This document shows positions 15,842-64,000 of a stretch of 64,000 nt of DNA, piece by piece (positions within the stretch are counted from its first letter, which is position 1; each line of letters begins with the position of its first letter). The notes beneath the pieces were generated by a model. The model saw nothing but the letters and a program-made list of their open reading frames with translations. It had not been told where the DNA came from and searched no databases. The position numbers were made by a program, and so were the translations under genes. The DNA comes from Burkholderiales bacterium (GTDB lineage: Bacteria > Pseudomonadota > Gammaproteobacteria > Burkholderiales > SG8-41). The stretch covers positions 2,312 through 66,311 of the forward strand of contig DASPNJ010000068.1 in assembly GCA_035626595.1 (NCBI GenBank), written 5' to 3'.

Positions 15842-16942
15842 TCACTGCAGCACCCACTTGCCACCGCGAACGCTGAAGACGGAGAGCTGCGGGTTTTTCA
15901 GATCCCCGTTCGCTTCGAACTCGATATCGGCGGTAACGCCGGGGTGCCGGATGCGTGCGAGGACCGGCAGGTACTTCGCAGGGTCGGAGGAGTCCGCCTT
16001 TTCCATAGCCGCCGCGAGCACCATCACGGCGTCATAGAAGTACGGTGCGTACAGGCCGATCTCCTGCTTCCAGCGGGCGCGGTACGCTCGGTCGAACGCG
16101 GGACCGTTCGGCCGCCTGGACAGCGCCGCGCCGGGGGTCGACGCGATGTGACCTTCGGCGGCGGGGCCCGCAAGCTCCAGGAACTTAGCGGTGTTGATCG
16201 TTTCGCCGCCGAGCAGCACCGCCTTCACGCCCAGCTCGCGCATCTGCCGCGCGAGCGGACCGGCCTGCGCGTCGTACCCGGCGAAGAAGATCGCCTGCGG
16301 CTCCGCGGCTTTGAGGAGCGTCACCACGGCGCGGAAATCGAAATCCTTGTCGCTCACGTATTCACGTTTGGCGATGCTGCCGCCGGCCGCTTTCACCGCG
16401 GAGGCGAACGCGTCGGCCAGACCCTGACCGTAGGCGGTGCGGTCGTCGACCACCGCGATGCGCTTCAAGCCGAGCCGCCGCACGGCGTACTCGCCCAGCG
16501 TGGCGCCCTGCTTGTCGTCGTCGGCCATGACGCGAAAGGCCGTGCGGTAGCCCTGGCGTGTGTACCTGGGATTGGTCGAGACCGAGATCTGCGGAATGCC
16601 CGCGTCGTGGTAGATCGTGGAGGCCGGTATGGTGACGCCCGAGTTGAAGTGCCCCACCATGCCCCGAATCCCGCGGTCCACCAGACGCTGTGCGACCAGC
16701 GTGCCGGTTTTGGGATCCGCCTGATCGTCTTCGACGACCAGCTCGAACCTGAGCTTGCTGCCGCGGCGCGCGTTCAGCTCCTCCACGGCCATCTGCGCGC
16801 CGTTGCGATTGTCGATCCCGTAATGCGCCTGCGGACCGGTGAGCGGTGAAGCGAATCCGATGCGTACCGATGGCGCGCGTTGCGCCAGCGCGTCGGCGCC
16901 GACCAAACCGAACAGGAACAGACCGATCGCTAGCGCGCGCAT
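15842..16942 (-). CDS. branched-chain amino acid ABC transporter substrate-binding protein (LivK/LivJ family)
   Basis: Signal peptide followed by IGFASPLTGPQAHYGIDNRNGAQMAVEELN..., the type-I periplasmic binding protein pattern. Confidence 0.8.
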   Translation of the reverse strand: MRALAIGLFLFGLVGADALAQRAPSVRIGFASPLTGPQAHYGIDNRNGAQMAVEELNARRGSKLRFELVVEDDQADPKTGTLVAQRLVDRGIRGMVGHFNSGVTIPASTIYHDAGIPQISVSTNPRYTRQGYRTAFRVMADDDKQGATLGEYAVRRLGLKRIAVVDDRTAYGQGLADAFASAVKAAGGSIAKREYVSDKDFDFRAVVTLLKAAEPQAIFFAGYDAQAGPLARQMRELGVKAVLLGGETINTAKFLELAGPAAEGHIASTPGAALSRRPNGPAFDRAYRARWKQEIGLYAPYFYDAVMVLAAAMEKADSSDPAKYLPVLARIRHPGVTADIEFEANGDLKNPQLSVFSVRGGKWVLQ

Positions 16943-16981
16943 CGAAAAATCATAGCATCGGACGCCGCACTGGACGCCGCG

Positions 16982-18262
16982 TCAGGTAATCAGGATCGCG
17001 CGATAGTCGTTCACGTTGGTGCGCGTCGGGCCGGTGACGACGAGCGAGCCAAGCGCCGAGAAGAAGGCGTAAGCATCGTTGTCGGCGAGTAGCGCGTCGG
17101 GCCGCAGTTTCTTTGCCGCGGCACGCTTCAGCGCGTCGGGCGCGAGGGTCGCACCGGCGTTGTCCTCCGAGCCGTCGATGCCGTCGGTATCGCACGCGAG
17201 CGCGTGTATGCGTTCGGCGCCGGCGAGATCGATCGCGAGCGAGAGCAGGAACTCGGCGCACCGGCCGCCGCGTCCTTCGCCGCGCACCGTCACCGTGCAC
17301 TCGCCGCCTGACAGCAGCGCCACCGGCGCCGGCCATGGCTTACCGTGCGTGCGGACTTCGCGCGCGAGCGCACCGTAGACCTTGGCTACCTCGCGCGCTT
17401 CGCCCGTCACCGAATCACCGAGGATCACGGGCTGGACGCCGTGATGCCGGAAGAAATCGGCCGCGGCCTGGAGCGAGTCGTGGGCCCGCGCGATGACGCG
17501 ATTCTCGACGCGCTGGAACAGCCGCTCGCCGGGCTTCGGTGTCTCGGGCAGCTCGCCGCGCGTCCCGCGCTCGAGGTGGGCTTGCACGGCCGGCGGCGTG
17601 CGCACTTCGTAGCGGTTCAGGATATCGATCGCGTCGCGGTAGGTCGTCGGGTCCGGTGCGCACGGGCCCGACGCTATGTGAGTGGGATCGTCGCCGGTCA
17701 CGTCCGAGACGATCAGCGCGAGCACGCGCGCGCGCGTCGCGGCTGCCAGCCGCCCGCCCTGTATCGCGGACAGGTGCTTGCGCACCGTGTTCATCTCCTG
17801 GATCGGCGCGCCGGAGCGCAGCAGCTCGCGGGTGGTCGCGCTCAGATCCGCCGTGGTCAGTCCCTCTGCCGGCAGCGTGAGCAGGCTCGAGCCGCCGCCG
17901 GACAGCAGCACCAGCATGAGATCGTCGCGCGTGAGCGCTTTTGCGCGCCGCAGAATCTCGTGCGCGGCTTTCTCGCCGGCCTCGTCGGGCACCGGATGCC
18001 CGGCTTCGACCACCGTCACGCGATTGGTGAGTAGCCCATGCTGGTAGCGCGTGACGACGAGGCCCTCGAGCGGGGTGTCGGCGGGCATGCCCTGCTCGAC
18101 GGCGAGCGCCATCGCTGCGGCCGCCTTGCCGGCGCCGACGACGAGCACGCGGCCGTTGTGTTGGTCCGGTAGCTTCGGCAGGTGCGCCGGTACGCGTTTC
18201 AGCGGATCCGCGGCGGCGAGGGCGGCTTCGAAGCTGCCGAGCAGGAGCTCGCGGGGCGACAT
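16982..18262 (-). CDS. glycerate 2-kinase / hydroxypyruvate reductase-type (DUF4147 + MOFRL)
   Basis: VLVVGAGKAAAAMA, LLSGGGSSLL, DTDGIDG and GPTRTNVND motifs match the TtuD/GckA family. Confidence 0.75.
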   Translation of the reverse strand: MSPRELLLGSFEAALAAADPLKRVPAHLPKLPDQHNGRVLVVGAGKAAAAMALAVEQGMPADTPLEGLVVTRYQHGLLTNRVTVVEAGHPVPDEAGEKAAHEILRRAKALTRDDLMLVLLSGGGSSLLTLPAEGLTTADLSATTRELLRSGAPIQEMNTVRKHLSAIQGGRLAAATRARVLALIVSDVTGDDPTHIASGPCAPDPTTYRDAIDILNRYEVRTPPAVQAHLERGTRGELPETPKPGERLFQRVENRVIARAHDSLQAAADFFRHHGVQPVILGDSVTGEAREVAKVYGALAREVRTHGKPWPAPVALLSGGECTVTVRGEGRGGRCAEFLLSLAIDLAGAERIHALACDTDGIDGSEDNAGATLAPDALKRAAAKKLRPDALLADNDAYAFFSALGSLVVTGPTRTNVNDYRAILIT

Positions 18263-18306
18263 TCAGCCAGCGCGCGAATGCGGGAACGGGTGCACGAGCG
18301 TGCCTT

Positions 18307-21270
18307 TCACTGCAGCACTTCTTTCAGGTAGCCGCCGGTGTGGCTCTCGGCGCACCGTGCGACGTCCTCCGGCGTGCCTTCTACGACCACCCGGCCGCCG
18401 GCGCCACCGCCCTCGGGTCCGAGGTCGATCACCCAGTCGGCGGTCTTGATCACGTCGAGGTTGTGCTCGATCACGACGATCGTATTGCCGTGATCGCGCA
18501 GCCGGTGGAGCACGCGCAGCAGCAGGTCGGTGTCGTGGAAATGAAGCCCGGTCGTCGGCTCGTCCAGAATGTAGAGCGTGCGCCCGGTGTCGCGCTTGGA
18601 GAGCTCGAGCGCGAGCTTCACGCGCTGGGCCTCGCCGCCCGAGAGGGTGATGGCGCTCTGACCGAGCGTGATGTAGCCAAGCCCGACGTCGAGCAGCGTC
18701 TGGAGCTTGCGCGCGAGCACCGGCACGGCGCTGAAGAACTCGGTCGCCTGCTCGACCGTCATTTCCAGCACCTCGTGGATGTTGCGGCCCTTGTATTCGA
18801 TCTCGAGCGTCTCGCGGTTGTACCGTGCGCCGTGGCAGACATCGCACGGCACGTAGATGTCCGGCAGGAAGTGCATCTCGACTTTGAGCATGCCGTCGCC
18901 CTGGCAGGCTTCGCACCGGCCGCCTTTCACGTTGAACGAGAAGCGGCCGGCGCCGTAGCCGCGCTCGCGCGCCGCAGGCACACCGGCGAAAAGGTCGCGT
19001 ATCGGCGTGAAAAGCCCGGTGTAGGTCGCCGGGTTCGATCGCGGCGTGCGGCCAATCGGGCTCTGGTCGACGTTCACCACCTTGTCGATGAGCTCCAAGC
19101 CGGCGATCGATTCATGGGGTGCCGGCTCGGTGGAGCTTCCGTAGAGCTGGCGCGCCACGGTGTTGTATAGCGTGTCATTCACGAGTGTCGATTTGCCCGA
19201 GCCCGACACGCCGGTCACGCAGACGAAGAGTCCGACCGGGATGTTGACGGTCACGTCTTTCAGGTTGTTGCCCTTCGCGCCGACGATCGAAAGCTGCCGC
19301 TTCGGATTCACGCGATGGCGCAGGCCCGGAAGCTCGATGCGGCGCCGGCCGCTCAAGTACTGGCCTGTCAGCGATTCCGCGTGCGCGCTGATCTCCTGCG
19401 GCGTGCCCTCGGCGACGACGCGGCCGCCGTGCTCGCCGGCACCCAGGCCCATATCGATGACATGGTCGGCGCTCATGATCGCTTCCTCATCGTGCTCGAC
19501 CACGATCACGGAGTTGCCGATGTCGCGCAGGCGCCTCAACGTATCGAGGAGCCGGCTGTTGTCGCGCTGATGCAGTCCGATCGAAGGCTCGTCCAGCACG
19601 TACATGACGCCGGTCAGGCCCGAGCCGATCTGGCTCGCGAGCCGGATGCGCTGCGCTTCGCCGCCGGAGAGCGTATCGGCCGAGCGGTCCAGCGACAGAT
19701 ATTCGAGTCCGACGTTCACGAGAAACTGCAGGCGGTTCAGTATCTCGCGCACGATTTTTTCCGCGATCGCCTGCTTCACGCCGGGCAGCGTGAGGCGACC
19801 GAAGAACTCGATCGCATCCGACAACGGCAGCGCCGAAAGCTCGTAAATCGGCCGCTCCGCGACTTTCACGTTGCGCGCCGAGGTGCGCAACCGCGTGCCG
19901 CCGCATTCGGGGCACGATTGGGCGTTGAGATATTTCGCGAGCTCCTCGCGCACCACGGCCGAGTCGGTCTCGCGGTAGCGCCGCTCGAGATTCGGCAGCA
20001 CGCCCTCGAACGGATGCTCGCGAAAGTGTTTGTTTCCGCGCTCCCCGACGTACAGGAAGCGGATCTTGTCGCGCCCGGAGCCGTGAAGGATCGCCTGCTG
20101 CACGGCTTCCGGCAGCTCGCCGAATGGACGCTCGAGGTCGAAGCCGTAGTGCGTCGCGAGGCCCTGCAGCATCTGGAAGTAGAACTGATTGCGTCTGTCC
20201 CACCCCTTGATCGCGCCGGACGCGAGTGAGAGCTCCGGAAAGGCGACGACGCGCTTCGGATCGAAGAAGCTGATCGTGCCCAGACCATCGCAGCGCGCGC
20301 AGGCGCCCAGCGGGTTGTTGAACGAGAACAGCCGCGGCTCGAGCTCGGGCAGCGAGTAGCTGCAGATCGGGCACGCGAACTTGGCCGAAAAAAGATGCTC
20401 GCGGTCAGTGTCCATCTCGACCGCAAGCGCGCGGCCGTCGGCGTGGCGCAGCGCCGTTTCGAATGATTCGGCCAGCCGCTGCTTTGCGTCGGCGCGGATC
20501 TTCAGCCGGTCGACGACGACTTCCACCGTGTGCTTCACGCTTTTCTTGAGCTTCGGCAGCTCGTCGAGCTCGTAGACCGTACCGTCCACACGTATGCGCA
20601 CGAAGCCCTGCGCGCGCAGCTCCTCGAAGAGATCCGCCTGCTCGCCCTTGCGCCCGACGATCAGCGGCGCGAGCACCATGAGCCGCGTGTCCTCCGGCAG
20701 CGTGAGCACGTGATCGACCATCTGGGAGACGCTTTGCGCGGTGAGCAGGATCTGGTGCTCCGGGCAGTACGGGTCGCCGATGCGCGCATACAGCAGCCGC
20801 AGATAGTCGTGGATCTCGGTGATCGTGCCGACGGTGGAGCGCGGATTGTGGCTCGCGGCTTTCTGCTCGATCGAGATGGCAGGGGAAAGCCCCTCGATCA
20901 GGTCGACGTCGGGTTTCTCCATGAGCTGCAGGAACTGCCGCGCGTACGCCGACAGCGATTCGACGTATCGGCGCTGACCTTCGGCGTACAGCGTGTCGAA
21001 TGCGAGCGAAGACTTGCCCGATCCGGAGAGACCGGTGATCACGACCAGCCGGTTGCGCGGCAGGTCGACGTTGACGTTCTTGAGGTTGTGCGTGCGAGCG
21101 CCGCGTATGCGGATCAGACCGTCGGTGCCGCTTCCCGCACTCGTATCACCGCCGGTCGCGGCACTCGCGGCGCCGCCTGTTCCCGCACCTGTGTCGCCGT
21201 CGCGATCACGATCGCTGCCGCGCGCGCGCGAACCGGTCAGCGGAACGAGGGAAGGTCGGCTTAACGTCAT
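18307..21270 (-). CDS. uvrA: excinuclease ABC subunit A (with ~55-aa low-complexity N-terminal extension)
   Basis: [49 protein letters not shown], zinc-finger Cys clusters and two ABC modules. Colinear with E. coli UvrA. Confidence 0.96.
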
Positions 21271-21345
21271 CGGGAGACAAGGGCAAACCTGCTAATATAC
21301 CGAAGACCTCCTCGCATTCCCATTCGTTCCAAACCCCGCAGCACG

Positions 21346-22752
21346 ATGTCCGCGCGCGACCGCATGAGTCCCGTTGAGCTTCGCGCGAGCGTGAGCCTTG
21401 CCGCGATCTTCGGGCTGCGCCTGCTGGGGATGTTCATCATCCTGCCGGTGTTCGCGATCTACGCGGAGCAGCTGCCCGGCGGCCACGATCTCACGCTCGT
21501 CGGCATCGCAATCGGCGCGTACGGCCTCACGCAGGCGGCGCTCCAGATCCCCTTCGGCTGGTGGTCCGACCGCTACGGGCGCAAGCCCGTGATCTACGTG
21601 GGGCTCGCGATCTTCGCCGCCGGCAGCTTCATCGCAGCCGCGGCAGCGAGCATCTACCTCGTGATCGTCGGGCGCGTGCTGCAGGGCGCGGGCGCAATCT
21701 CGGCGGCGGTGATGGCAATGGCCGCGGATTTGACGCGCGAAGAGCATCGCACGAAGGCGATGGCGATGATCGGCTCGACGATCGGGCTCGCGTTCGCGTT
21801 TTCGCTCGTCGCGAGCCCATGGTTGGCCGGTCTCATCGGCGTCCCGGGTCTGTTCGCCATGACCGGCGCGCTCGCGCTCGCTGCAATGCTGGTGGTGTGG
21901 CGTGTCGTCCCGGACATCGAAGAGACGCGGCGCCCGAGCCGCGGCAGCGCGCTGCGCGAGTTCTGGCATGCCTTGTCCGATCCTCAGCTTGCCCGGCTCA
22001 ACTACGGGATCTTCGTGCTGCACGCGGTGCTGATGTCGCTTTTCATCGTCGTGCCGTTCTCGCTGCGCGACGCCGGCCTGCCGCTGCCGGGACACTGGAA
22101 GGTTTATCTGCCCGCGATGCTCGGCTCGTTCGTGCTCATGCTGCCTGCGGTCCTGGGCCGATCGAGCGCGCAGCGCCTGAAACCAGTCTTCATCGGATCG
22201 ATCGCGGTGCTACTCGCCGCGCACCTCGCGCTCCCGTGGCTTGCCGGCGGCGTCGCCTCGCTCACGCTGTTCCTGCTTTTCTTTTTCACGCCGTTCAACG
22301 TGCTCGAGGCGATGCTGCCTTCGCTCACCTCCCGGCTCGCGCCCGCGCACAGCAAAGGTATCGCAATCGGCCTTTACAGTAGCGTGCAGTTCTTCGGCAC
22401 TTTTTTCGGCGCCGCCGCCGGCGGATTCCTGTACGAACACTGGGGTACGACCAGCGTCGTAATCGCAAACGCGGCGCTGCTCGTTATCTGGATCATCGCC
22501 GCTGCAGGCATGCGCCCGCAGGGGGTGCTCAGCCTGCGCACGTACAGCGTGCCGCCGCTCGACGCGCAGCAGGCGCAGCGTCTCGCCGCGCGCTTGCAGG
22601 CGCTTGCGGGCGTGCGCGAAGCGCGCGTCATCGCAGAGGAGAGGACGGCATCTCTCATGGTGGACAGCACCGCCTTTGACGAACACAATGTGCTTCAAGC
22701 TATAGCATCGCAAGGAGAGCTCACATGGCCTCAGTCAACAAAGTCATCCTGA
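21346..22752 (+). CDS. MFS transporter with C-terminal soluble domain
   Basis: 12-TM-like hydrophobic pattern with the MFS loop motif [12 protein letters not shown]. Divergent from uvrA and upstream of ssb. Confidence 0.8.
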
Positions 22753-57025: not shown

Positions 57026-57120
57026 TGGCGGAAGAGAGTGGGAGTCGAACCCACGCAGGACCGCCTGCGGCCCCTACCGGGTTTGAAGTCCGGCCGCCCC
57101 ACCGGGAGCGATTCCCTTCC
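57026..57120 (-). tRNA. selC: tRNA-Sec (UCA anticodon)
   Basis: Minus-strand 95 nt: GGAAGGGAATCGCTCCCGGTGGGGCGGCCGGACTTCAAACCCGGTAGGGGCCGCAGGCGGTCCTGCGTGGGTTCGACTCCCACTCTCTTCCGCCA. Features: 8-bp acceptor stem, CUUCAAA anticodon loop, long extra arm, encoded CCA. Nearly colinear with E. coli selC. Confidence 0.93.
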
Positions 57121-57155
57121 TCGGGTCGAAAAGCCCCCGCATTTTAACGGCTAAA

Positions 57156-57249
57156 CCGTAAGGAAACGAGGTTACGCAGGGAACACGGAGCGCCGAAGGC
57201 GCGACCTGCATGGGTTTCCCTCTGTTCGTAGGGCTGCGAGGCCCGAGCC
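57156..57249 (-). repeat. dispersed structured intergenic repeat, copy c (with central hairpin)
   Basis: Minus strand: ACGAACAGAGGGAAACC..GCGCC-uuc-GGCGC..GTTCCCTGCGTAACCTCGTTTCCTTACGG. Lies between the TrxR-like gene and tRNA-Sec. Confidence 0.7.
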
Positions 57250-58154
57250 TACTGCAAGCGCAGCCCGAATACCGCGCGCTTCGCTTCGTCGAGCGCGTGC
57301 TCGAGCGTGCCGCCGAAGCCACTCCTCACCGCGCCGATCGCGGAGATGCGCGGCGCGGCGGTCGCGAAGGCGTCGTTCGTACGCACGAAACCGTAGTCGT
57401 CGCGCTCGACCTCATGCGGCAGGAACTCCGCATTGGGCGCGAGGCCGATGTAAGCGAAGACGCCGGCGCACGGCAGCTCCTCGATGCGGCCGTCCGTATG
57501 TCTCACGCGAGCCTTCTCGACCATTTTGCCGCCGAGAATCGCGTCGAGCGTCGCCTTGCGGATGATCGTCACCTTGCCGTTCGCTTTGACCTGCTCGACG
57601 AAATGCGGGCTCGCGCGGAACGTGTCGCCGCGGTGGACGAGGATCACGCGCCGGCAGTATTGCGCGAGCACCAGCGCTTCCTGGAATGCCGAATCGCCGC
57701 CGCCGACGACGATCGCGTCCTCGTTCTGATACATCGGACCGTCGCAGTCGGCGCATTGCGACACGCCACGCCCTTCGAATTCGCTCTCACCCGGGATGCC
57801 GAGCTTTTTCAGCCGCGCGCCCGACGCCACGATCACGTGGCGCGCGGTATGCGAGCCCGATTCGGTGACCACTTCGACGCAGTCGCCGACGGCGCGCACA
57901 CCCGTCACGGTTTCCGGCATGCTGGTCACGCCCGCCTCGCCGTTCTGCTGCATCATCTCGGCCGCGAGCTCCGCGCCCGAAGTCGGCCGGCCGGGCGGGG
58001 CGGGCTCGAGCTCGTTCACGTTGATCACGAGGCCGCCGAAGAGCTGCTGCTCGATCGAGGCGACCTTCAGCCCCGCTTTCGCGGCTTCGCCCGCCGCGGC
58101 AAGGCCGGACACGCCTTCACCGATCACGATTACGTTGTAGGTTGCCTGTGCCAT
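57249..58154 (-). CDS. thioredoxin reductase-like FAD/NAD(P)H flavoprotein (CADC redox motif)
   Basis: VIVIGEGVSGLAAAGEAAKAG, GRGVSQCADCDGP (TrxB has CATC), VVGGGDSAFQEA, HRGDTFRA. Starts 13 nt downstream of selB. Confidence 0.8.
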   Translation of the reverse strand: MAQATYNVIVIGEGVSGLAAAGEAAKAGLKVASIEQQLFGGLVINVNELEPAPPGRPTSGAELAAEMMQQNGEAGVTSMPETVTGVRAVGDCVEVVTESGSHTARHVIVASGARLKKLGIPGESEFEGRGVSQCADCDGPMYQNEDAIVVGGGDSAFQEALVLAQYCRRVILVHRGDTFRASPHFVEQVKANGKVTIIRKATLDAILGGKMVEKARVRHTDGRIEELPCAGVFAYIGLAPNAEFLPHEVERDDYGFVRTNDAFATAAPRISAIGAVRSGFGGTLEHALDEAKRAVFGLRLQ

Positions 58155-58167
58155 CGCTTCGAGCCTT

Positions 58168-60168
58168 TCATCGTCTGTAGGTTGGTGCCGGCCGGCGCGC
58201 TGGCGCGGGTTTCGGCGCGGGCTTGGCCGTCGCCGGCGGACGCGCGGGCGCTGTCGCGGCGCCGAGTATGGGTACGAAATCCTTGCGCATCTTGCGGGCG
58301 TCGCCTACACGCTGCGTGATGCCGAGGCCGTCGAGAAATTCGAGGATCTCGATGGCGAGGCTGCGTCCGACGCCGGTGGCATCGCGATACTGCGCGGCGG
58401 TGAACTGGCCGTTCGGCTGCGCCTGCGCGGTGGCTTGCGCGATCGCCGCGAGCGTCGCCAGTGTGGCGCGCGGATAGAAGCGGTCACCGGTCACGCGCAT
58501 GACCTCGCCGGTCTTCGCCTTGCGGTACAGAAAATCCTTGACGATCGGTTCCTTCAACTTCAGCTGCGCGGCGAGGTCGCGCAGCGGCGGCGCATTGAAG
58601 CCCGCGCCTTCGAGCGCGGGACGCACCGTCTGCCACAAGCGGGCGTCGGCTTCGTTGGCGGTGGCGTTGTGGCCGGGCAGCCGCGCGGTGGAGCCGCTCG
58701 CCTCGATCCTGCGTTCGTCGGCGAGGCGCCGCAGCACCGAACCGAAGGCGTCCGCGTCGAGGTCCGGCGCGATTGTCTTGCGCAGCGCCTCGATCTCGTG
58801 TCCGGGCGCCTGCGGATTTGCGCGGTGGAACTCGCCCAACGCACGCACGATCGCTTCGCGCACGGCGTCGATCCGCGCTTGCTTGACCGCCAGCCGTCCG
58901 TCCTTGCCGAGCCGCGCGATGCCGGCATGCTCGTACAGACGCGCGGTACGTTCCGGCGCGAGGTTGTAGACGAGCTCGAACCGCGCGAGGTCCACCGGTT
59001 GACCGCTCTCCAGCATTGCCGCCAGGGCGTCCTCGGCCGCGTCGTGCTCCAGCGCCGCAAGTTGCGCCGCGCGCTCCCGGCTTGCGCGTCGGCTCGCGGG
59101 GGCGAACGGATCGAGCACGAAGCCGCCGCCGAGCGTGCGGATCGCCGACTGATCGCGCACGATGAAGCGGTCGCCGCGCAGCGCGCAGATCGGCTGATCG
59201 AGAACGAGCTGGACGTAGGCGCTCGCGCCGGGCGCGATGTCTTCACCACGGCGCGTGGCGATGCGTGCGGTGACGTCGCTCGTGGCGAGATGCAGGTGCA
59301 CCGGCGTCCAGTGCTCGAGCGCGCTCGCTTCGGCGTCGAGCACTTTCAGGCGCGCATCGATGCGGCTCGTCGGATGGTGGAGCTCCGGCGCGAGCACCCA
59401 ATCGCCACGGCGCACCGCGTCGAGCCCGGCGCCCGTCAGATTGAGCGCGCAGCGCTCGCCGGCCTGCGCGGCCTGTGCCGCCCGCCCGTGGATCTGAATC
59501 CCGCGCACGCGCACCGGCAGCCCTGCCGGCGATATCGTCAGCCGGTCGCCCGGTTTCACCGTGCCGTTGAACACGGTGCCGGTGACGACCGTGCCGCTGC
59601 CCGCGACGCTGAACGCGCGATCGATCGCATAGCGCAGGTGCTGGCCCGGTGCGTGGCGCGCGGAGTGCCGCTGCGCTTCGGTGACGAGGCGCTCGCGCAG
59701 CGCATCGATGCCTTGCCCGGTCAGCGCGGACACCGCGAGCGTGGGAGCGCCAGCGAGCTGCGTTGGCGCGAGCAGCGCGGTGACCGCATCCTCGACTTCG
59801 CGCACCCGGGCGGCATCGACGCGGTCGCACTTGGTGATGACTGCGGCGCCGCGCGCGACGTGCAGGAGATCGAGAATGTGCAGGTGTTCGATCGTCTGCG
59901 GCATGACACCGTCGTCCGCCGCCACGACCAGCAGCGCGAAATCGATGCCGCTCACGCCCGCGAGCATGTTTCGGATAAAGCGCTCGTGACCCGGCACGTC
60001 GACGAAACCGATCAAGCCGCCGCCTTCGAGCGGCAGGTACGCGAATCCCAGATCGATCGAGATCCCGCGCGCTTTTTCCTCCGGCAGGCGGTCGGTGTCC
60101 ACGCCCGTGAGCGTTTTCACGAGCAGCGTCTTGCCGTGGTCGATGTGGCCTGCGGTCGCGACGATCAT
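58168..60168 (-). CDS. selB: selenocysteine-specific elongation factor SelB
   Basis: ATG at 60168 gives [44 protein letters not shown]. GTPase domain plus a long C-terminal winged-helix region. Starts 2 nt after the selA stop. Confidence 0.93.
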
Positions 60169-60170
60169 GG

Positions 60171-61577
60171 TTACAGCTTCAAGTGCAGGAGTTGCGCGAC
60201 GAACCCGGCTTCGTCGTCGAGACAGCGCAGATCCATGAGGAAAGCGCCTTCGGTGACGCGCCCGATCACCGGCATCGGCAGTGCGCGGAACGCGTTCGCG
60301 ATGCGCTGTGCGGCCGAGCCTTTCGTTTTTCCGGAGATCTCGACGGCAATGCCGGCGCTCGGCAGCGAATCCACGGGCAGCGAGCCGCTGCCGATCTGAC
60401 TCTTGCACGCGCTCACCCGAGCCTGCGCGCGACTGCCCAGCGCCGCCTGCACCTGCGGCAGCAGCCGCGCCGCCTGCGCGTCGATATCGTCGAGGTCCCG
60501 CGTGAGAAATCGCAGCGTCGGCAGCTCTTGCGCGAGCTTATCGGGGTTGGCATAGAGCTTGAGCACGCTCTCGAGCGCCGCGAGAACCATCTTGTCCACC
60601 CGCAGCGCGCGTTTCATGGGGTTTTTCCGGATCCGCTCGACGAGATCCTTGCGCCCGACGATGAGGCCGGCCTGCGGACCGCCGAGCAGCTTGTCGCCGC
60701 TGAAGGTGACGATGTCGGCGCCGCTCGCGAGTGCTTCGCGCGGCGTCGGCTCGTGTGGCAGGCCGTACTCTTCCAGATCGACGAGCATGCCGCTGCCGAG
60801 ATCGACCAGCATCGGCAGCCCGTGGTCGTGCGCGAGCTTCGCGAGCTCGGCTTCGGACACCGAAGCGGTGAAGCCCTGGATCGCGTAGTTGCTCGTGTGC
60901 ACCTTCATGAGCGCCGCTACGCCCGGCCCGAGCGCTTCGGCGTAATCCTTGAGGTGCGTGCGGTTGGTCGTGCCAACCTCGCGCAGCTTGCAGCCGGAGC
61001 GCGTCATGATGTCGGGGATGCGGAACGCGCCGCCGATCTCGACGAGCTCGCCGCGCGAGACCAGCACTTCCTTGCGCGCCGCGACCGTGTTGAGCGTGAG
61101 ATACACCGCGGCGGCATTGTTGTTCACGACGGCCGCACTCTCGGCGCCGGTGAGCCGCGTAAGCCAGCGCTCGACATGCGTATCGCGCTCGCCCCGCGCG
61201 GCGCCCTCGAGGTCGAATTCCAAATTGACCGGCCGCGTCATCGCCTGCATCACCGCTTCGGCGGCGGCCTGCGGCATCGGCGCGCGGCCAAGGTTCGTGT
61301 GCAGCACGGTGCCGGTGAGATTGAAAACGGCTCGCAGTGAAGGTTGTGTCTCGTGCGCGAGCCGCGAAGTGCACGCGGCGAGGAGCACTGCATCGTCGAA
61401 ATCGCCGTCGGGCGTAGCGTGCGCGAGCCGCCGGCGCTCTTCCTCGAGCAGCGCGCGCAGCGTATCGGTGACATGTGGACGGCCGTAGCGGCCGATGAGC
61501 GGTTCGACCCGGCTGTCGTTCAGCAGCCTGTCGATGGACGGCAACGCGCGACGCGCGGCGGGTCCGCCGTTCAGCAC
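60171..61577 (-). CDS. selA: L-seryl-tRNA(Sec) selenium transferase SelA
   Basis: Colinear with E. coli SelA: [53 protein letters not shown] (PLP Lys), SQIGSGSLP. Confidence 0.95.
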
Positions 61578-61617
61578 GGCGGCCGTCCCGAAGTAAAGCG
61601 ATAGATCATGAGCCTTT

Positions 61618-62394
61618 CTATTCGAACAGCCGCTCCGGCAGCGGAAGCCCGGCGAGGTCGTGCTGCGACAGGCGCTGCGCAGGCGTCACGCCCCAGCGCT
61701 CCTCGAGGATGTGCGCGAGCTGCCGCGCGTGCTGTGCCGAGTGCCACGTCGAGCGCTCCAGCACCTGGTGCAGCGGCTGGGGGCCGTAGAAGGTCGCCAT
61801 CTTCTGCGCGCCGGATTTGTCAGCGAGCTGCGACCACCACGCTTCGATTCGGCGCACGACCTCATCGCCATACTGCGCGATCTCGCCTCCGGTCAGGTAC
61901 GTGCCGTCTGCCGGCGGCACGTTCGCGGCCTGGATCGCGTATTCCTTCCCGTCGATGGCCGATTCGAGGAACGCCTCACCGATGCGGAATACGTGATGCG
62001 CGAGCAGACGGATCGGGCGGTCGCGGTTCGGGATCACGCGCTCGCTCATCTTGTCGCCGGGGATCTGCGCGATCAGCGCCTGCGAGGTGCGCAGCACGTT
62101 AACCCATTTGCGAACGAGCTCGTCAGGCGGCAGCGGAGTGTGTCCGGTGCCCTGCAGGCCGACGAACTCCGCGACGTCTTCGAGGTTCTGGCCGAAAACG
62201 TAATTCTCGCCGCGCGCGACGACGGGCACGTTGCGTACGCCGAGCTTGAGCAGCCGCTCGCGGCCTCCGGTGTCGTTCAACACGTCCACGTGCTCGTACT
62301 CGATACCTTTACGCGAAAGAAACTCTTTCGCCCGGAGACAACTGCTTCACCCCGGTTGTGTGAATAAAACGAACTTGTCTGCGACCGTGTTCAT
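61618..62394 (-). CDS. selenoprotein: glutaredoxin/NrdH-like domain with U-S-S-C redox motif fused to a DinB-family domain. The in-frame TGA (62347-62349) is read as Sec.
   Basis: Hand translation upstream of track ORF 61618-62289, same frame: ATG(62394) MNTVADKFVLFTQPG-TGA-SSCLRAKEFLSRKGIEYEHVDVLNDTGGRERLLKLGVRNVPVVARGENYVFGQNLEDVAEFVGL... This is a complete Grx fold with TGA at the first Cys position of CxxC. A hairpin lies downstream. selA starts 40 nt after the stop. An alternative ATG lies at 62448. Confidence 0.75.
62313..62349 (-). promoter_or_regulatory. UGA codon plus candidate bacterial SECIS hairpin
   Basis: UGA-15 nt-GCGAAAG-AGUUU-CUUUCGC. Perfect 7-bp stem with GU in the apical loop. 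The loop starts 22 nt after UGA. Confidence 0.45.
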
Positions 62395-62525
62395 GCGCGC
62401 TTTCGGGAGTGACGGCGAGGGGAATCGGGAGGCTACTCCGCGCCTCATTCGAGCGTCAAGGCGAGTATAATGGCGCGCCGCCCGCAGCCCACGCGAGCGT
62501 CACGCCACGTCATCCCGCCGCGAGA

Positions 62526-63137
62526 ATGAAGCTCATAGGCACGCCCACCAGTCCTTACACGCGCAAAGTGCGTGTCGTTCTCGCGGAGAAGCGCATCGAC
62601 TATGAATTCATCGTCGACGTGCCCTACGAAGCGACGACGCGCGTGCCGTCGTACAACCCGCTCGGCAAAGTGCCTGTGCTCGTGCTCGACGATGCGACGA
62701 CGCTCTTCGATTCGCGCGTGATCGTGGAGTATCTCGACAGCGCGAGCCCGGTCACGAAGCTCCTGCCCGACGATACGCGCCCGCGTATACAGACGCGCCG
62801 CTGGGAAGCGCTCGCCGATGGATGTGTCGATGCCGTGGTCGCCATACTCATGGAAAAACGGCGGCCACAGGAGCTCCAGTACGATCAGTGGTACGGCCGT
62901 CAGCGCGAGAAGATCGACCGCGCCCTGCACGCGATGTCGGACGAGCTCGGCAGCCGCAGCTTCTGCTGCGGTGACTTCTTCAATCTGGCGGACGTCGCCG
63001 TCGGATGTTGTCTCGGCTTCCTCGATCTGCGTCTGCCGGAGATCAACTGGCGCTCGCCCTACTCGAACCTGGCGAAGCTCGCCGAGAAGCTCGGCAACCG
63101 GCCCTCGTTCAAGGACACGGTTCCACCGCAGACGTAG
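62526..63137 (+). CDS. yibF: glutathione S-transferase, YibF-like
   Basis: ATG 62526 gives MKLIGTPTSPYTRKVRVVLAEKRIDYEFI...NPLGKVPVLV...FDSRVIVEYL, closely colinear with E. coli YibF. Divergent from the sel operon. Confidence 0.8.
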   Translation: MKLIGTPTSPYTRKVRVVLAEKRIDYEFIVDVPYEATTRVPSYNPLGKVPVLVLDDATTLFDSRVIVEYLDSASPVTKLLPDDTRPRIQTRRWEALADGCVDAVVAILMEKRRPQELQYDQWYGRQREKIDRALHAMSDELGSRSFCCGDFFNLADVAVGCCLGFLDLRLPEINWRSPYSNLAKLAEKLGNRPSFKDTVPPQT

Positions 63138-63200: not shown

Positions 63201-64000
63201 CTACGACTCCGGAGCGACTGCTCCTGGCGGACACTCCGCCGGCGCGGCGGAAGCAGACTCTTTCTGTGCGGACTCGATGATGCCTCCGCCCAGGCAGACG
63301 CGGCTTTCGTAAGCGACGACCGACTGACCGGGCGTCACCGCCCACTGCGGCTCCGCAAAGTCGATCGTGCAGCGGTTCGCGTCGCATTCCACGAGCGTGC
63401 ACGGTGCGTCCTTCTGCCGGTAGCGGGTTTTCGCGCTGTAGACCCACGCGCAGTGGGGCGTGCTGCCGCTCACCCAGGAAAGATTCACCGCCGTCAGCCG
63501 GTTCGAATACAGCGCACGGTTCTCGCGTCCCTGCACGACGATCAGGCGATTTCGTTTCAGGTCTTTGTCGACCACGTACCAGGCATCGCGCTCGGCCTCG
63601 CGCATGCCGCCGATGCCGAGCCCCTGCCGCTGGCCGATCGTGTAGAACATGAGGCCCATGTGGCGGCCGACGAGGCGCCCGTCGAGCGTATAGATGTGGC
63701 CGGGATCGGCCGGCAGGTAGCGGTTGAGAAATTCGCGGAATGGACGCTCGCCGATAAAGCAGATGCCGGTGGAATCGCGCTTGTCGTGGTTGGGGAGCCC
63801 CTCGCGCCGCGCGATCTCGCGCACTTCGCGCTTGTAGAGCCCGCCGAGCGGAAAGAGCGTTTTCGAGAGCTGCCGCTGATCGAGGCGGTACAGGAAGTAG
63901 CTCTGATCCTTGCTGCCGTCCTCGGCCTTCAGAAGCTGGAACAGACCATCGCGTTCGCGCACCTGCGCATAATGCCCCGTCGCGATGTAGTCGGCGCCGA
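63201..64000 (-). CDS. mnmA: tRNA 2-thiouridine(34) synthase MnmA (5' part beyond window end)
   Basis: [25 protein letters not shown] and, at the window edge, [14 protein letters not shown]. The ORF is open to position 64000. Confidence 0.9.

Follow-up and report, generated by a model that had tools for sequence, protein, structure and literature searches.

What does a bacterial selenocysteine (Sec)-decoding cluster serve when the selenoprotein gene directly upstream of it does not encode a formate dehydrogenase, and what role falls to a thioredoxin reductase (TrxR)-like flavoprotein gene lying between selB and selC? Both questions are raised by a 64,000-nucleotide stretch of DNA (hereafter, the window) from an uncultured betaproteobacterium of soil or groundwater that belongs to a Burkholderiales lineage. 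On the minus strand of the window, a TGA-containing gene for a glutaredoxin–DinB protein (Grx–DinB) is followed by selA, selB, the TrxR-like gene, and the tRNA-Sec gene, with spacers between consecutive genes of exactly 40, 2, 13, and 128 nt. The features are as follows:

61618–62394, minus strand: selenoprotein gene Grx–DinB; 258 codons, reading frame with an in-frame TGA
60171–61577, minus strand: selA, L-seryl-tRNA(Sec) selenium transferase; TIGR00474, 597.9 bits (cut-off 268); Pfam SelA, 543.6 bits
58168–60168, minus strand: selB, Sec-specific elongation factor; TIGR00475, 447 bits (cut-off 242)
57249–58154, minus strand: TrxR-like flavoprotein gene, 301 aa; TIGR01292, 226.5 bits (cut-off 343); Pyr_redox_2
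57121–57248, minus strand: intergenic spacer between the TrxR-like gene and selC, 128 nt
57026–57120, minus strand: selC, tRNA-Sec, anticodon UCA; ARAGORN (TCA); Rfam RF01852, 75.8 bits (gathering threshold 47)
62526–63137, plus strand: YibF-type glutathione S-transferase (GST); NF007682, 191.8 bits (equivalog cut-off 181)
63201–64000, minus strand: mnmA, tRNA 2-thiouridylase, truncated by the window end; Pfam tRNA_Me_trans, matched by the complete gene of locus L001

The profile, ARAGORN, and Rfam matches establish the identity of the cluster genes, and SelB additionally matches Beta-barrel_SelB and the C-terminal winged-helix SECIS-binding domains SelB-wing_2 and SelB-wing_3. An initial annotation made from the letters of the window (the sequence-only reading) had thus named the Sec-decoding genes correctly, as it had the strands, the spacers (given as 40, 2, 13, and about 130 nt), and a divergent YibF-like GST. 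We consider it likely, with a probability of roughly 0.75, that the region is a chromosomal Sec-decoding cluster with a conserved core, selA-selB-(TrxR-like gene)-selC, and a selenoprotein gene of the lineage directly upstream; part of the same explanation is that Grx–DinB consists of a glutaredoxin-like domain with U16-x-x-C19 fused to a four-helix-bundle DinB/YfiT domain in which His134, His218, and His222 form a candidate metal site.

The UGA codon and the architecture of Grx–DinB

Four elements of the Grx–DinB gene bear on its decoding and function:

62347–62349, minus strand: UGA codon 16, read as Sec; motif QPG-U-SSC
62314–62330, minus strand: putative SECIS hairpin, CGAAAGA-GUU-UCUUUCG; 17 nt, 7 bp, GUU loop, starting 16 nt after the UGA
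62140–62370, minus strand: glutaredoxin-like (NrdH/YruB-type) domain; residues ~9–85, redox centre U16-S-S-C19
61717–62091, minus strand: DinB/YfiT-type domain; residues ~102–226, candidate metal triad H134, H218, and H222

The TGA is a selenocysteine codon, because it is kept at codon 16 in 80 of 80 orthologous loci, aligns with the first Cys of CxxC in 19 Cys-form homologues, and is followed by a hairpin that is constrained in the Sec forms; TGA is also present in 45 additional Sec-form Grx–DinB loci. The hairpin appears in both the minimum free energy and centroid folds, and its nucleotides, synonymous sites included, are invariant across 79 distinct Sec-form sequences. Third-position entropy over codons +6 to +11 is 0 bits in the Sec forms versus 1.0 to 1.7 bits at conserved flanking residues, whereas in 33 Cys forms the values reach 0.5 to 1.4 bits over the six codons and 0.5 to 1.2 bits at the K-E-F-L codons. 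As judged from these alignments, the nucleotide-level constraint is limited to Sec forms, and the hairpin is a putative SECIS that SelB would bind. No compensatory covariation was found in the hairpin, and the whole 83-nt region around it folds no better than shuffles (z = 0.26).

That the TGA is instead a true stop, the product being a 223-aa DinB-only ORF starting with GTG at 62289, is scarcely credible. The best 120 database homologues are all annotated in this manner, as proteins of 206–238 aa starting after the TGA, but the 15 codons 5′ of the TGA show in-frame conservation across 80 loci and complete the glutaredoxin fold, the CxxC-bearing Cys homologues read straight through the TGA position, SECIS-type constraint lies downstream of it, and the Sec machinery adjoins the gene.

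Grx–DinB matches Pfam Glutaredoxin at residues 9–63 (47.8 bits) and DinB_2 at residues 102–226 (28.3 bits); the adjacent gene, which had been taken for a selenoprotein other than a formate dehydrogenase, is indeed a genuine one. In the NCBIfam profile search, the top models for the glutaredoxin domain were YruB (44.8 bits), Uxx_star, and NrdH, every one under its cut-off, so that no model reached an equivalog cut-off, and the full protein likewise exceeded the cut-off of no Sec-Grx, Uxx-star, or other NCBIfam model. The closest PDB sequences are glutaredoxin 7c10 (E = 4.7e-10) and NrdH redoxins. Like the known glutaredoxin selenoproteins (PF00462, UxxC; PMC13188914), Grx–DinB has a thioredoxin-fold Grx domain with an N-terminal UxxC that is CxxC in Cys homologues, whereas the known ones are single-domain proteins and Grx–DinB is a 258-aa fusion. 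None of the 119 prokaryotic selenoprotein families catalogued in 2026 is a DinB-containing entry (PMC13188914), and no link between a DinB domain and a selenoprotein in this sense was found in the literature searched.

The AF2 model has a pLDDT of about 90 across the DinB domain, for which the best Foldseek matches are 6iz2 (DR0053 DinB/YfiT), 2nsf (mycothiol-dependent maleylpyruvate isomerase), 1rxq (YfiT), and 8f5v (mycothiol S-transferase), with a probability of 1.0 to the first 3 at a sequence identity of merely 12% to 20%. The domain resembles the DinB/YfiT (S-transferase-like, STL) superfamily, which includes BstA, YfiT, mycothiol S-transferase, and the MDMPI N-terminal domain, in its four-helix bundle and, in the model, in a predicted helix 1 His and helix 4 HxxxH; it differs in being joined to a redox-active Sec/Cys redoxin domain. 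The triad histidines are invariant or nearly so when Sec and Cys forms are compared. DinB/STL enzymes are metal-dependent thiol transferases (PMC10950700). Grx–DinB would act through its U/C pair on a thiol-linked substrate held at the DinB metal site, which it would either reduce or transfer.

Conservation, transcription, and mobility of the cluster

The sequence-only reading had made conservation of the arrangement elsewhere part of its own test, and comparison of the neighborhoods of related sel loci found it conserved: dozens of Burkholderiales metagenome-assembled genomes (MAGs) at species level share the order mnmA-(GST)-GrxDinB-...-selA-selB-TrxRl-tRNA-Sec. The chromosomal anchor upstream is mnmA, which adjoins Grx–DinB in nearly all Burkholderiales loci, and about half of the related loci also have the GST. 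The sel genes follow the plan of other bacterial selAB/selC clusters (E. coli yibF-selA-selB; Achromobacter and Comamonas selA-selB-selC...selD) in that selA lies next to selB and almost overlaps it, tRNA-Sec lies downstream of selB, and the SECIS, putative here, is just 3′ of the UGA. As in E. coli, a YibF-type GST adjoins selA; the protein shares 40% identity with E. coli YibF across its whole length. By contrast, the present cluster has the TrxR-like gene inserted between selB and selC and a non-formate dehydrogenase selenoprotein gene directly upstream, and selD, which Achromobacter has about 2 kb or less from selC, is not nearby.

The adjacency of Grx–DinB could be incidental, and a classical formate dehydrogenase with Sec, encoded at another site in the genome, could be what chiefly maintains the Sec trait; among bacterial selenoproteins FdhA is the most widespread, and frequently it is the only one (PMC13188914), and in 36 of 56 relatives Grx–DinB and selA are split by 1.2–7.5 kb of mostly opposite-strand genes. 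We regard this as improbable, since Grx–DinB lies about 8 kb or less upstream of selA and in the same orientation in 56/56 related loci with both genes, at 60% to 76% protein identity, 2 more types of non-formate dehydrogenase selenoprotein cluster with the module, and tblastn with E. coli FdhF detected no homologue anywhere in the window or in the ±10 kb covered at each of 82 related loci. The same search with E. coli SelD was likewise negative at all of them, and for the window both absences agree with the sequence-only reading.

The cluster does not serve a single client, contrary to the suggestion that Grx–DinB was its only one. A second selenoprotein is encoded within the cluster or next to it in at least 13 related loci; it is a UGSC-domain fusion with the motif GIGA-U-G[AS]C that is not present in this window. 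Some MAGs encode a second Sec-type Grx–DinB paralogue. The U-G-[AS]-C domain of the relatives matches PF24696, as in UGSC-family selenoproteins (NF041046/PF24696), but its fusion partner is an unassigned domain of about 470 aa, and the fusion scores under the NF041046 cut-off (53 versus 125).

Because a consensus scan detected no promoter-like sites, we infer the operon structure from spacing alone, and the same negative scan keeps the assignment of a selC promoter provisional. The 4 protein genes are presumably co-transcribed in this window, given the spacers of 40, 2, and 13 nt and no terminator-like site on the minus strand of the cluster. The selC gene probably has a promoter of its own within the spacer, where a TAAAAT box precedes it at 57141–57146; relatives usually have a TACAAT-like box 20–60 nt upstream of tRNA-Sec, which in some of them is as far as 2.4 kb off. 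Together with the split between Grx–DinB and selA, these features do not fit the proposed single transcription unit including the tRNA. We also rejected the spacer at 57121–57248 as a "structured repeat": it contains no direct repeat or inverted pair, its folding energy (−46.1 kcal/mol versus a shuffle mean of −44.8; z = −0.34) is not significant, and related loci carry unrelated sequence there.

The cluster shows no sign of recent mobility. Its GC content equals that of the flanks, its position beside mnmA is fixed in the chromosome, and no integrase or transposase families were recorded among called genes within ±10 kb of selA, all of which speaks against the suggestion that it is transferable.

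The TrxR-like flavoprotein and its possible electron acceptors

The TrxR-like protein aligns with TrxRs in the PDB at about 170 bits, its CADC matching CATC, and shares with low-Mr TrxB (TIGR01292, NrdH-redoxin substrates) 2 Rossmann domains, GxGxxG, GGGDSA, and CxxC. It departs from TrxB in its score (226 bits against a cut-off of 343), in the NADPH 2′-phosphate motif (HRR to HRG, in HRGD), in the C-terminal FAD motif (GD to GA, in AIGAVRSGFGG), and in its genomic setting. The CADCD motif is invariant in 45 orthologues. The subfamily is restricted to about 212 species, patchily distributed over the Burkholderiales clade, Paracoccus, and one Sphingobium MAG, and its gene is nearly always found between selB and tRNA-Sec: selB immediately precedes it in 68 of 74 loci, and tRNA-Sec follows it in 63 of 73. 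The sel clusters of Achromobacter and Comamonas lack the gene, which therefore represents a clade-specific insertion.

One reading, that of the original annotation, makes the flavoprotein the dedicated NAD(P)H-dependent reductase of Grx–DinB and the 5 genes a self-contained, transferable redox module on a single transcript. The tight spacing here is in keeping with it, as is the NrdH/YruB-type Grx domain, a redoxin class that is reduced by TrxR. In 30/56 loci, Grx–DinB is found no more than 6 kb upstream of the TrxR-like gene, and the patchy distribution, together with location on megaplasmids or chromids in Paracoccus, hints at old horizontal transfer. We nonetheless find this reading unlikely. 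By tblastn (E ≤ 1e-6), none of the 63 Sec- or Cys-form Grx–DinB loci outside the mnmA/sel context has a TrxR-like gene within 6 kb, and cultured Paracoccus has selB-TrxRl-tRNA-Sec with no Grx–DinB gene in the stretch examined; the gene thus tracks selB and tRNA-Sec, not the Grx–DinB family. The inserts upstream of selA, the further selenoprotein genes flanking the module, the GC content equal to the flanks, and the fixed mnmA neighbor also weigh against it, and, with selD missing from the window and from 82/82 loci at ±10 kb, the module is not self-contained. What endures of that interpretation is the set of Sec genes, the non-formate dehydrogenase selenoprotein, and the conserved order; self-containment, a sole client, a dedicated reductase, transferability, and one unit with the tRNA are unsupported or weakened.

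A role in selenium supply, and not in the service of any selenoprotein, is a somewhat better, still tentative, proposal: the flavoprotein would reduce selenite, selenodiglutathione, selenotrisulfides, or a carrier protein to yield selenide for SelD, and the neighboring YibF-type GST could act in the same pathway. Its linkage to selB and selC is far tighter than to any client gene, the position between selB and tRNA-Sec is kept in Paracoccus, and in this cluster, as in E. coli, a YibF GST is next to selA. Selenite reduction by the thioredoxin system serves selenoprotein synthesis (PMC8538045), and the most frequent fusion partner of SelD is an NADH-dehydrogenase-like domain (Zhang 2008; Mariotti 2015, PMC4561486). 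Such fusions, presumed to deliver reduced selenium, likewise couple a pyridine-nucleotide flavoprotein to Sec synthesis, whereas here a separate TrxR-type protein is linked to selB/selC and not fused to SelD. Against this proposal, selD is never adjacent (window and 82 loci, ±10 kb), and most Sec-using bacteria, including Achromobacter and Comamonas, do without the TrxR-like gene.

The TrxR-like flavoprotein would relay electrons from NAD(P)H, via FAD and the invariant CADC disulfide, to a selenium-containing acceptor, which may be either the selenenylsulfide of Sec-redoxin clients (Grx–DinB and UGSC proteins) or a selenium species that needs reduction to feed SelD. What the locus brings that is new is an uncatalogued selenoprotein architecture and, within sel operons, a candidate accessory flavoprotein.

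Gene content and transcription of the selenocysteine cluster

The cluster, a conserved variant of the selenocysteine (Sec) operon of bacteria, includes an extra gene for a thioredoxin-reductase-like (TrxR-like) flavoprotein and is flanked by uncatalogued selenoprotein architectures, among them a fusion of glutaredoxin-like and DinB/YfiT domains (Grx-DinB).

Features of the Sec cluster and its upstream neighbors in the window

57026-57120, minus strand: tRNA-Sec (selC) with a UCA anticodon (ARAGORN; Rfam RF01852, 75.8 bits versus 47)
57249-58154, minus strand: TrxR-like ORF of 301 aa (TIGR01292, 226.5 bits; cut-off, 343.45)
58168-60168, minus strand: selB (TIGR00475, 447 bits; Pfam SelB-wing_2, SelB-wing_3, and SelB_WH_2nd)
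60171-61577, minus strand: selA, Sec synthase (TIGR00474, 597.9 bits; cut-off, 267.9)
61618-62394, minus strand: Grx-DinB, 258 codons with an in-frame TGA at codon 16 (Glutaredoxin and DinB_2 domains; NCBIfam and Pfam)
62526-63137, plus strand, divergent: YibF-type GST (NF007682, 191.8 bits versus an equivalog cut-off of 181)
63201-64000, minus strand: mnmA, the neighbor upstream of the Sec cluster

This gene set, its order, its strand, and its spacers of 40, 2, 13, and 128 nt are exactly those of the sequence-only reading. Both selA and selB were identified unambiguously by NCBIfam and Pfam models, and the latter place C-terminal winged helices of the SECIS-binding type in SelB. The reported lack of selD and of a formate dehydrogenase was likewise borne out: searches with E. 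coli SelD and FdhF returned no match anywhere in the 64-kb window, and homologs of either were also absent from 82 related loci (within ±10 kb). A self-contained module, as had been proposed, is incompatible with this absence of SelD, and selD is expected elsewhere in the genome. The first 600 stretches obtained in a broader alignment-based SelD scan came from other Burkholderiales and share no accession with the 149 Grx-DinB assemblies. The 128-nt spacer between the TrxR-like gene and tRNA-Sec, previously described as a structured repeat, contains no repeat, has a fold z-score of −0.34 against shuffled sequences, and is unconserved in relatives. A crude read-through scan of the window yielded one further selenoprotein candidate, with a TGA at 16984, which was rejected as two adjacent same-frame genes; this ordinary pair (15842-18262, minus strand) consists of a glycerate-kinase-like gene ending in TGA followed by a same-frame gene for a solute-binding protein.

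The proposal that the genes from Grx-DinB to selC form one transcription unit holds at most in part. The four protein genes are near enough to each other, with no terminator-like sites between them, and from this spacing only we infer that they constitute one operon in the window. The region upstream of selC is unconserved, a TACAAT-like box is usual there (TAAAAT at 57141-57146 in the window), and tRNA-Sec lies over 1 kb from the TrxR-like gene in seven relatives, in some cases with an opposite-strand TctC gene in between; these features argue that selC has its own promoter.

A glutaredoxin-DinB selenoprotein and its candidate SECIS element

The TGA of Grx-DinB encodes Sec. The window matches metagenome contigs. 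When one genome per species was scanned, 151 proteins related to the fusion emerged, of which 80, mostly from uncultured Burkholderiales MAGs, were retained; TGA occupies the same codon in all 80, within the motif QPG-U-SSC-LR[AT]KEF, and the 15 codons upstream of it are kept in frame across the set. Searching 1.8 billion cluster representatives without a profile recovered 816 relatives, many of which are Cys forms of full length that have C-[ST]-S-C at the Sec position. Database gene calls for the 120 best homologs are truncated, starting after the TGA with lengths of 206-238 aa, and carry names such as “hypothetical,” “DinB,” or “glutaredoxin domain.”

A 17-nt block, CGAAAGAGUUUCUUUCG, starts 16 nt after the UGA and folds into a stem of 7 bp capped by a GUU loop. 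It is identical in 79/79 distinct Sec-form sequences, in which the third positions of the six hairpin codons show 0 bits of variation, with one codon each. The flanking residues are equally conserved, yet use 2-5 codons each (1.0-1.7 bits at third positions), and the same K-E-F-L residues in 33 Cys forms display third-position variation of 0.5-1.2 bits. Synonymous-site constraint limited to Sec forms is what a SECIS element would be expected to leave, and the hairpin is a candidate for one. The case is built on this invariance, since RNAalifold found no structure common to all Sec-form subfamilies and the hairpin shows neither both-sided changes nor compensatory covariation; taken in its entirety, the 83-nt region has ordinary stability. 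Sec-type Grx-DinB genes from Reyranella and other Alphaproteobacteria (L105, L111, L120, L122, L125, L127, L156, and L164 among the related loci) have the motif QPG-U-TSCLRLKE and lack the Burkholderiales hairpin, folding into a GAGACUC-AAA-GAGUUUC stem with a longer lower stem. Their hairpin seems to lie in another register, and the different stem indicates that the putative SECIS diverged within one protein family.

The Grx domain (PF00462, 47.8 bits, above 22.9) contains U16-S-S-C19 and a conserved cis-Pro (VP). By sequence, it is nearest to the NrdH/YruB-type glutaredoxin-like redoxins, with scores below the cut-offs of the respective models (TIGR02196, 44.8 versus 88.55; TIGR02194, 36.9 versus 85.75). 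Redoxins of this class are reduced by thioredoxin reductase, not glutathione. None of the NCBIfam Grx, Uxx-star, and NrdH models matches Grx-DinB above its cut-off, and no NCBIfam model covers the family. Known glutaredoxin selenoproteins (PF00462, UxxC) share with it the Grx/Trx-fold domain and an N-terminal U-x-x-C but are small single-domain redoxins, whereas Grx-DinB has 258 aa and two domains.

The DinB domain (PF12867, 28.3 bits, above 24.8) is predicted to be a four-helix bundle (AF2, pLDDT ~90) in a model that starts after residue 16 and is of low confidence in its Grx part. Foldseek aligns the domain with DinB/YfiT proteins (6iz2 and 1rxq), with mycothiol S-transferase (8f5v), and with the N-terminal part of mycothiol-dependent maleylpyruvate isomerase (2nsf); TM(target) reaches 0.82 among 6iz2, 2nsf, and 1rxq. 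Residues invariant across both Sec and Cys forms are U/C16, S18, C19, the cis-Pro, and H218-x-x-x-H222 of helix 4, and H134 of helix 1 is at least 90% conserved. H134, H218, and H222 are the predicted metal triad of the DinB/STL type, a helix 1 His plus HxxxH being typical of metal-binding DinB/STL thiol transferases (PMC10950700). Among the 119 prokaryotic selenoprotein families catalogued in 2026 (PMC13188914), there is a plain Grx entry and none containing DinB, and in the literature searched no paper ties DinB to selenoproteins in this sense. Grx-DinB is thus a selenoprotein architecture missing from current catalogues.

Cys forms occur in cultured Caballeronia, Variovorax, Rhizobium leguminosarum, and Roseomonas, under generic names and among heterogeneous neighbors. 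Neighbors of Grx-DinB in other phyla and of Cys forms in cultured bacteria (solute-binding proteins, RidA, MFS, regulators, and esterases) gave no hint of function. In one homolog of 721 aa (P0188), an MmgE/PrpD domain is fused to a Cys-type Grx-DinB. The contig of the window has two MmgE/PrpD genes past tRNA-Sec, at distances of ~3 kb and ~6 kb (17358-18761 and 20342-21407 in the coordinates of the contig stretch L001), together with AtuA, DUF4387, and TctC genes.

Conservation, linkage, and descent of the cluster

Comparison of neighborhoods upheld the expectation that the arrangement recurs in the Burkholderiales lineage, in which the order is mnmA-(GST)-GrxDinB-[variable]-selA-selB-TrxRl-tRNA-Sec (TrxRl, TrxR-like gene), with median gaps of 59 nt between selA and selB and ~60 nt between selB and the TrxR-like gene. 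Only 19/56 relatives have selA within 400 nt of Grx-DinB; in 36/56, the two are 1.2-7.5 kb apart. The inserts consist mostly of opposite-strand genes, and 30 of their 74 ORFs encode TctC-family solute-binding proteins. A second selenoprotein is encoded in the insert of at least 13 loci; in it, a UGSC-family domain (GIGA-U-G[AS]C-TPAV), scoring below the NF041046 cut-off, is fused to a C-terminal domain of ~470 aa; the window itself has no such gene. Furthermore, some MAGs contain a second Sec-type Grx-DinB paralog, ~50% identical, on another contig. The UGSC fusions and the second paralogs overturn the idea of a single client: the Sec machinery of this lineage serves several thiol/selenol redox proteins, of which the window shows one.

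The UGSC-fusion gene (PF24696, in-frame TGA) flanks the sel module, sometimes in two copies, at L029:4521-6281 (minus strand) and also in L010, L016-L018, L021, L025, L030, L036, L037, L047, L050, L064, L081, and many of L249-L327. A standalone homolog of its C-terminal domain is encoded in Paracoccus versutus (L248:3593-4393), ~3.5 kb upstream of selB. Second copies within one MAG, either of Sec-type Grx-DinB or, apparently, of selB-TrxRl-tRNA-Sec on separate contigs, were seen in L034 and L110 (JAOUIN01), in L004 and L121 (JBKJKJ01), and in L041, L301, and L326 (DATBMB01). Such doubling within single MAGs could reflect either real duplication or a mixed bin.

The TrxR-like protein resembles low-Mr thioredoxin reductase (TIGR01292) but falls below that model's cut-off and has altered HRR and GD motifs. 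Its CADC, aligned to the CATC of TrxR, is invariant in 45 orthologs, GxGxxG and GGGDSA motifs are present, and the subfamily is marked by VS[HQ]CADCD, HRGD, and AIGAVR[AS]GFGG; only 212 relatives were found among 185,579 species genomes. Across 79 loci, counted over testable cases, selB is directly upstream of the TrxR-like gene in 68/74, tRNA-Sec follows on the same strand in 63/73 (median gap, 111 nt), and Grx-DinB is located within 6 kb upstream in 30/56. Grx-DinB also occurs elsewhere, as Sec forms in Eremiobacterota, Reyranella, Acetobacteraceae, Udaeobacter, and the Burkholderiales paralogs, and as Cys forms in Rhodospirillales, SAR116, and SUP05; within 6 kb of these loci there are no TrxR-like, selA, or selB genes. 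Cultured Paracoccus versutus has selB-TrxRl-tRNA-Sec on chromids, and Paracoccus ferrooxidans, where an IS5 element (ISPme2) has disrupted selB, displays the same order; no Grx-DinB gene was found in the Paracoccus stretches examined. Conversely, the clusters of the cultured Burkholderiales Achromobacter (sp. UMC46, L216:1-6000) and Comamonas testosteroni (L200) run selA-selB-tRNA-Sec, ~1.9 kb, selD, passing straight from selB to tRNA-Sec without a TrxR-like gene. Given the linkage to selB and tRNA-Sec, the Paracoccus order, the invariant CADC, and the absence from other Grx-DinB loci, the TrxR-like gene is accessory to the Sec operon in particular lineages and goes with the sel module, not with Grx-DinB. 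The Paracoccus loci (L247:8702-9924; L248:7950-10924; L249) are on megaplasmids or chromids; the P. ferrooxidans selB remnant is a 57-aa C-terminal piece annotated as hypothetical, and selA lies ~5 kb upstream, with a canonical trxB directly after it.

The view of the cluster as a transferable module found no backing. The Pfam assignments recorded for genes called within ±10 kb include no integrase or transposase, no repeats surround tRNA-Sec, the GC content of the cluster (0.65-0.70) equals that of its flanks with no compositional sign of horizontal transfer, and the cluster adjoins mnmA in the large majority of related loci. Protein identities of Grx-DinB, SelA, and SelB drop together across loci, consistent with vertical descent. 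The patchy distribution and the megaplasmid or chromid site in Paracoccus allow for an old inter-class transfer of the TrxR-like module. The constant upstream neighbor mnmA (same position in L003-L069) encodes an enzyme making 2-thiouridine, which, with selenophosphate, is a substrate of the selenouridine synthase SelU/MnmH; its adjacency to the Sec cluster may be a coincidence.

Possible roles and biological meaning

Our assignment of biochemical roles to the TrxR-like protein, Grx-DinB, and the UGSC fusion is based solely on homology and genomic context. Recycling of Sec-redoxin clients by the TrxR-like protein would fit the NrdH-like Grx domain of Grx-DinB. Reduction of selenium compounds to feed SelD would fit as well: the thioredoxin system takes part in selenite assimilation (PMC8538045), fusions of SelD to an NADH-dehydrogenase-like domain are common (PMC4561486), and a YibF-type GST abuts selA both in the window and in E. 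coli. The genomic evidence slightly favors a role tied to the Sec machinery itself. A more far-reaching reading, less likely than not at a probability of roughly 0.3, is that the TrxR-like flavoprotein would be an unrecognized, lineage-specific fifth component of Sec metabolism, a dedicated NAD(P)H-dependent reductase that either produces the selenium donor for SelD or acts in Sec-redoxin recycling, and that Grx-DinB and the UGSC fusions would be new selenoenzymes sustaining the Sec trait instead of formate dehydrogenase in aerobic soil and groundwater Burkholderiales.

The YibF-type GST is 40% identical over its full length to E. coli K-12 YibF (L166:5348-5956). The E. coli order is yibF-selA-selB, and the GST likewise abuts selAB in this Burkholderiales lineage, which suggests that the long-uncharacterized YibF may act in selenium metabolism.

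The combination of a redoxin with a predicted DinB metalloenzyme adds an architecture absent from the 119 listed families, and thousands of database entries consistently misannotate it as a truncated “hypothetical” or “DinB” protein. A TrxR-like gene inside the sel operon of ~200 species offers a testable lead on the delivery of reduced selenium to SelD and on Sec-redoxin recycling, and these species include the cultured, presumably genetically tractable P. versutus. Finally, the Sec genes of one abundant environmental Burkholderiales lineage appear to be organized around thiol/selenol redox proteins rather than formate dehydrogenase, a counter-example to the formate dehydrogenase-centered view that bears on what maintains the Sec trait.
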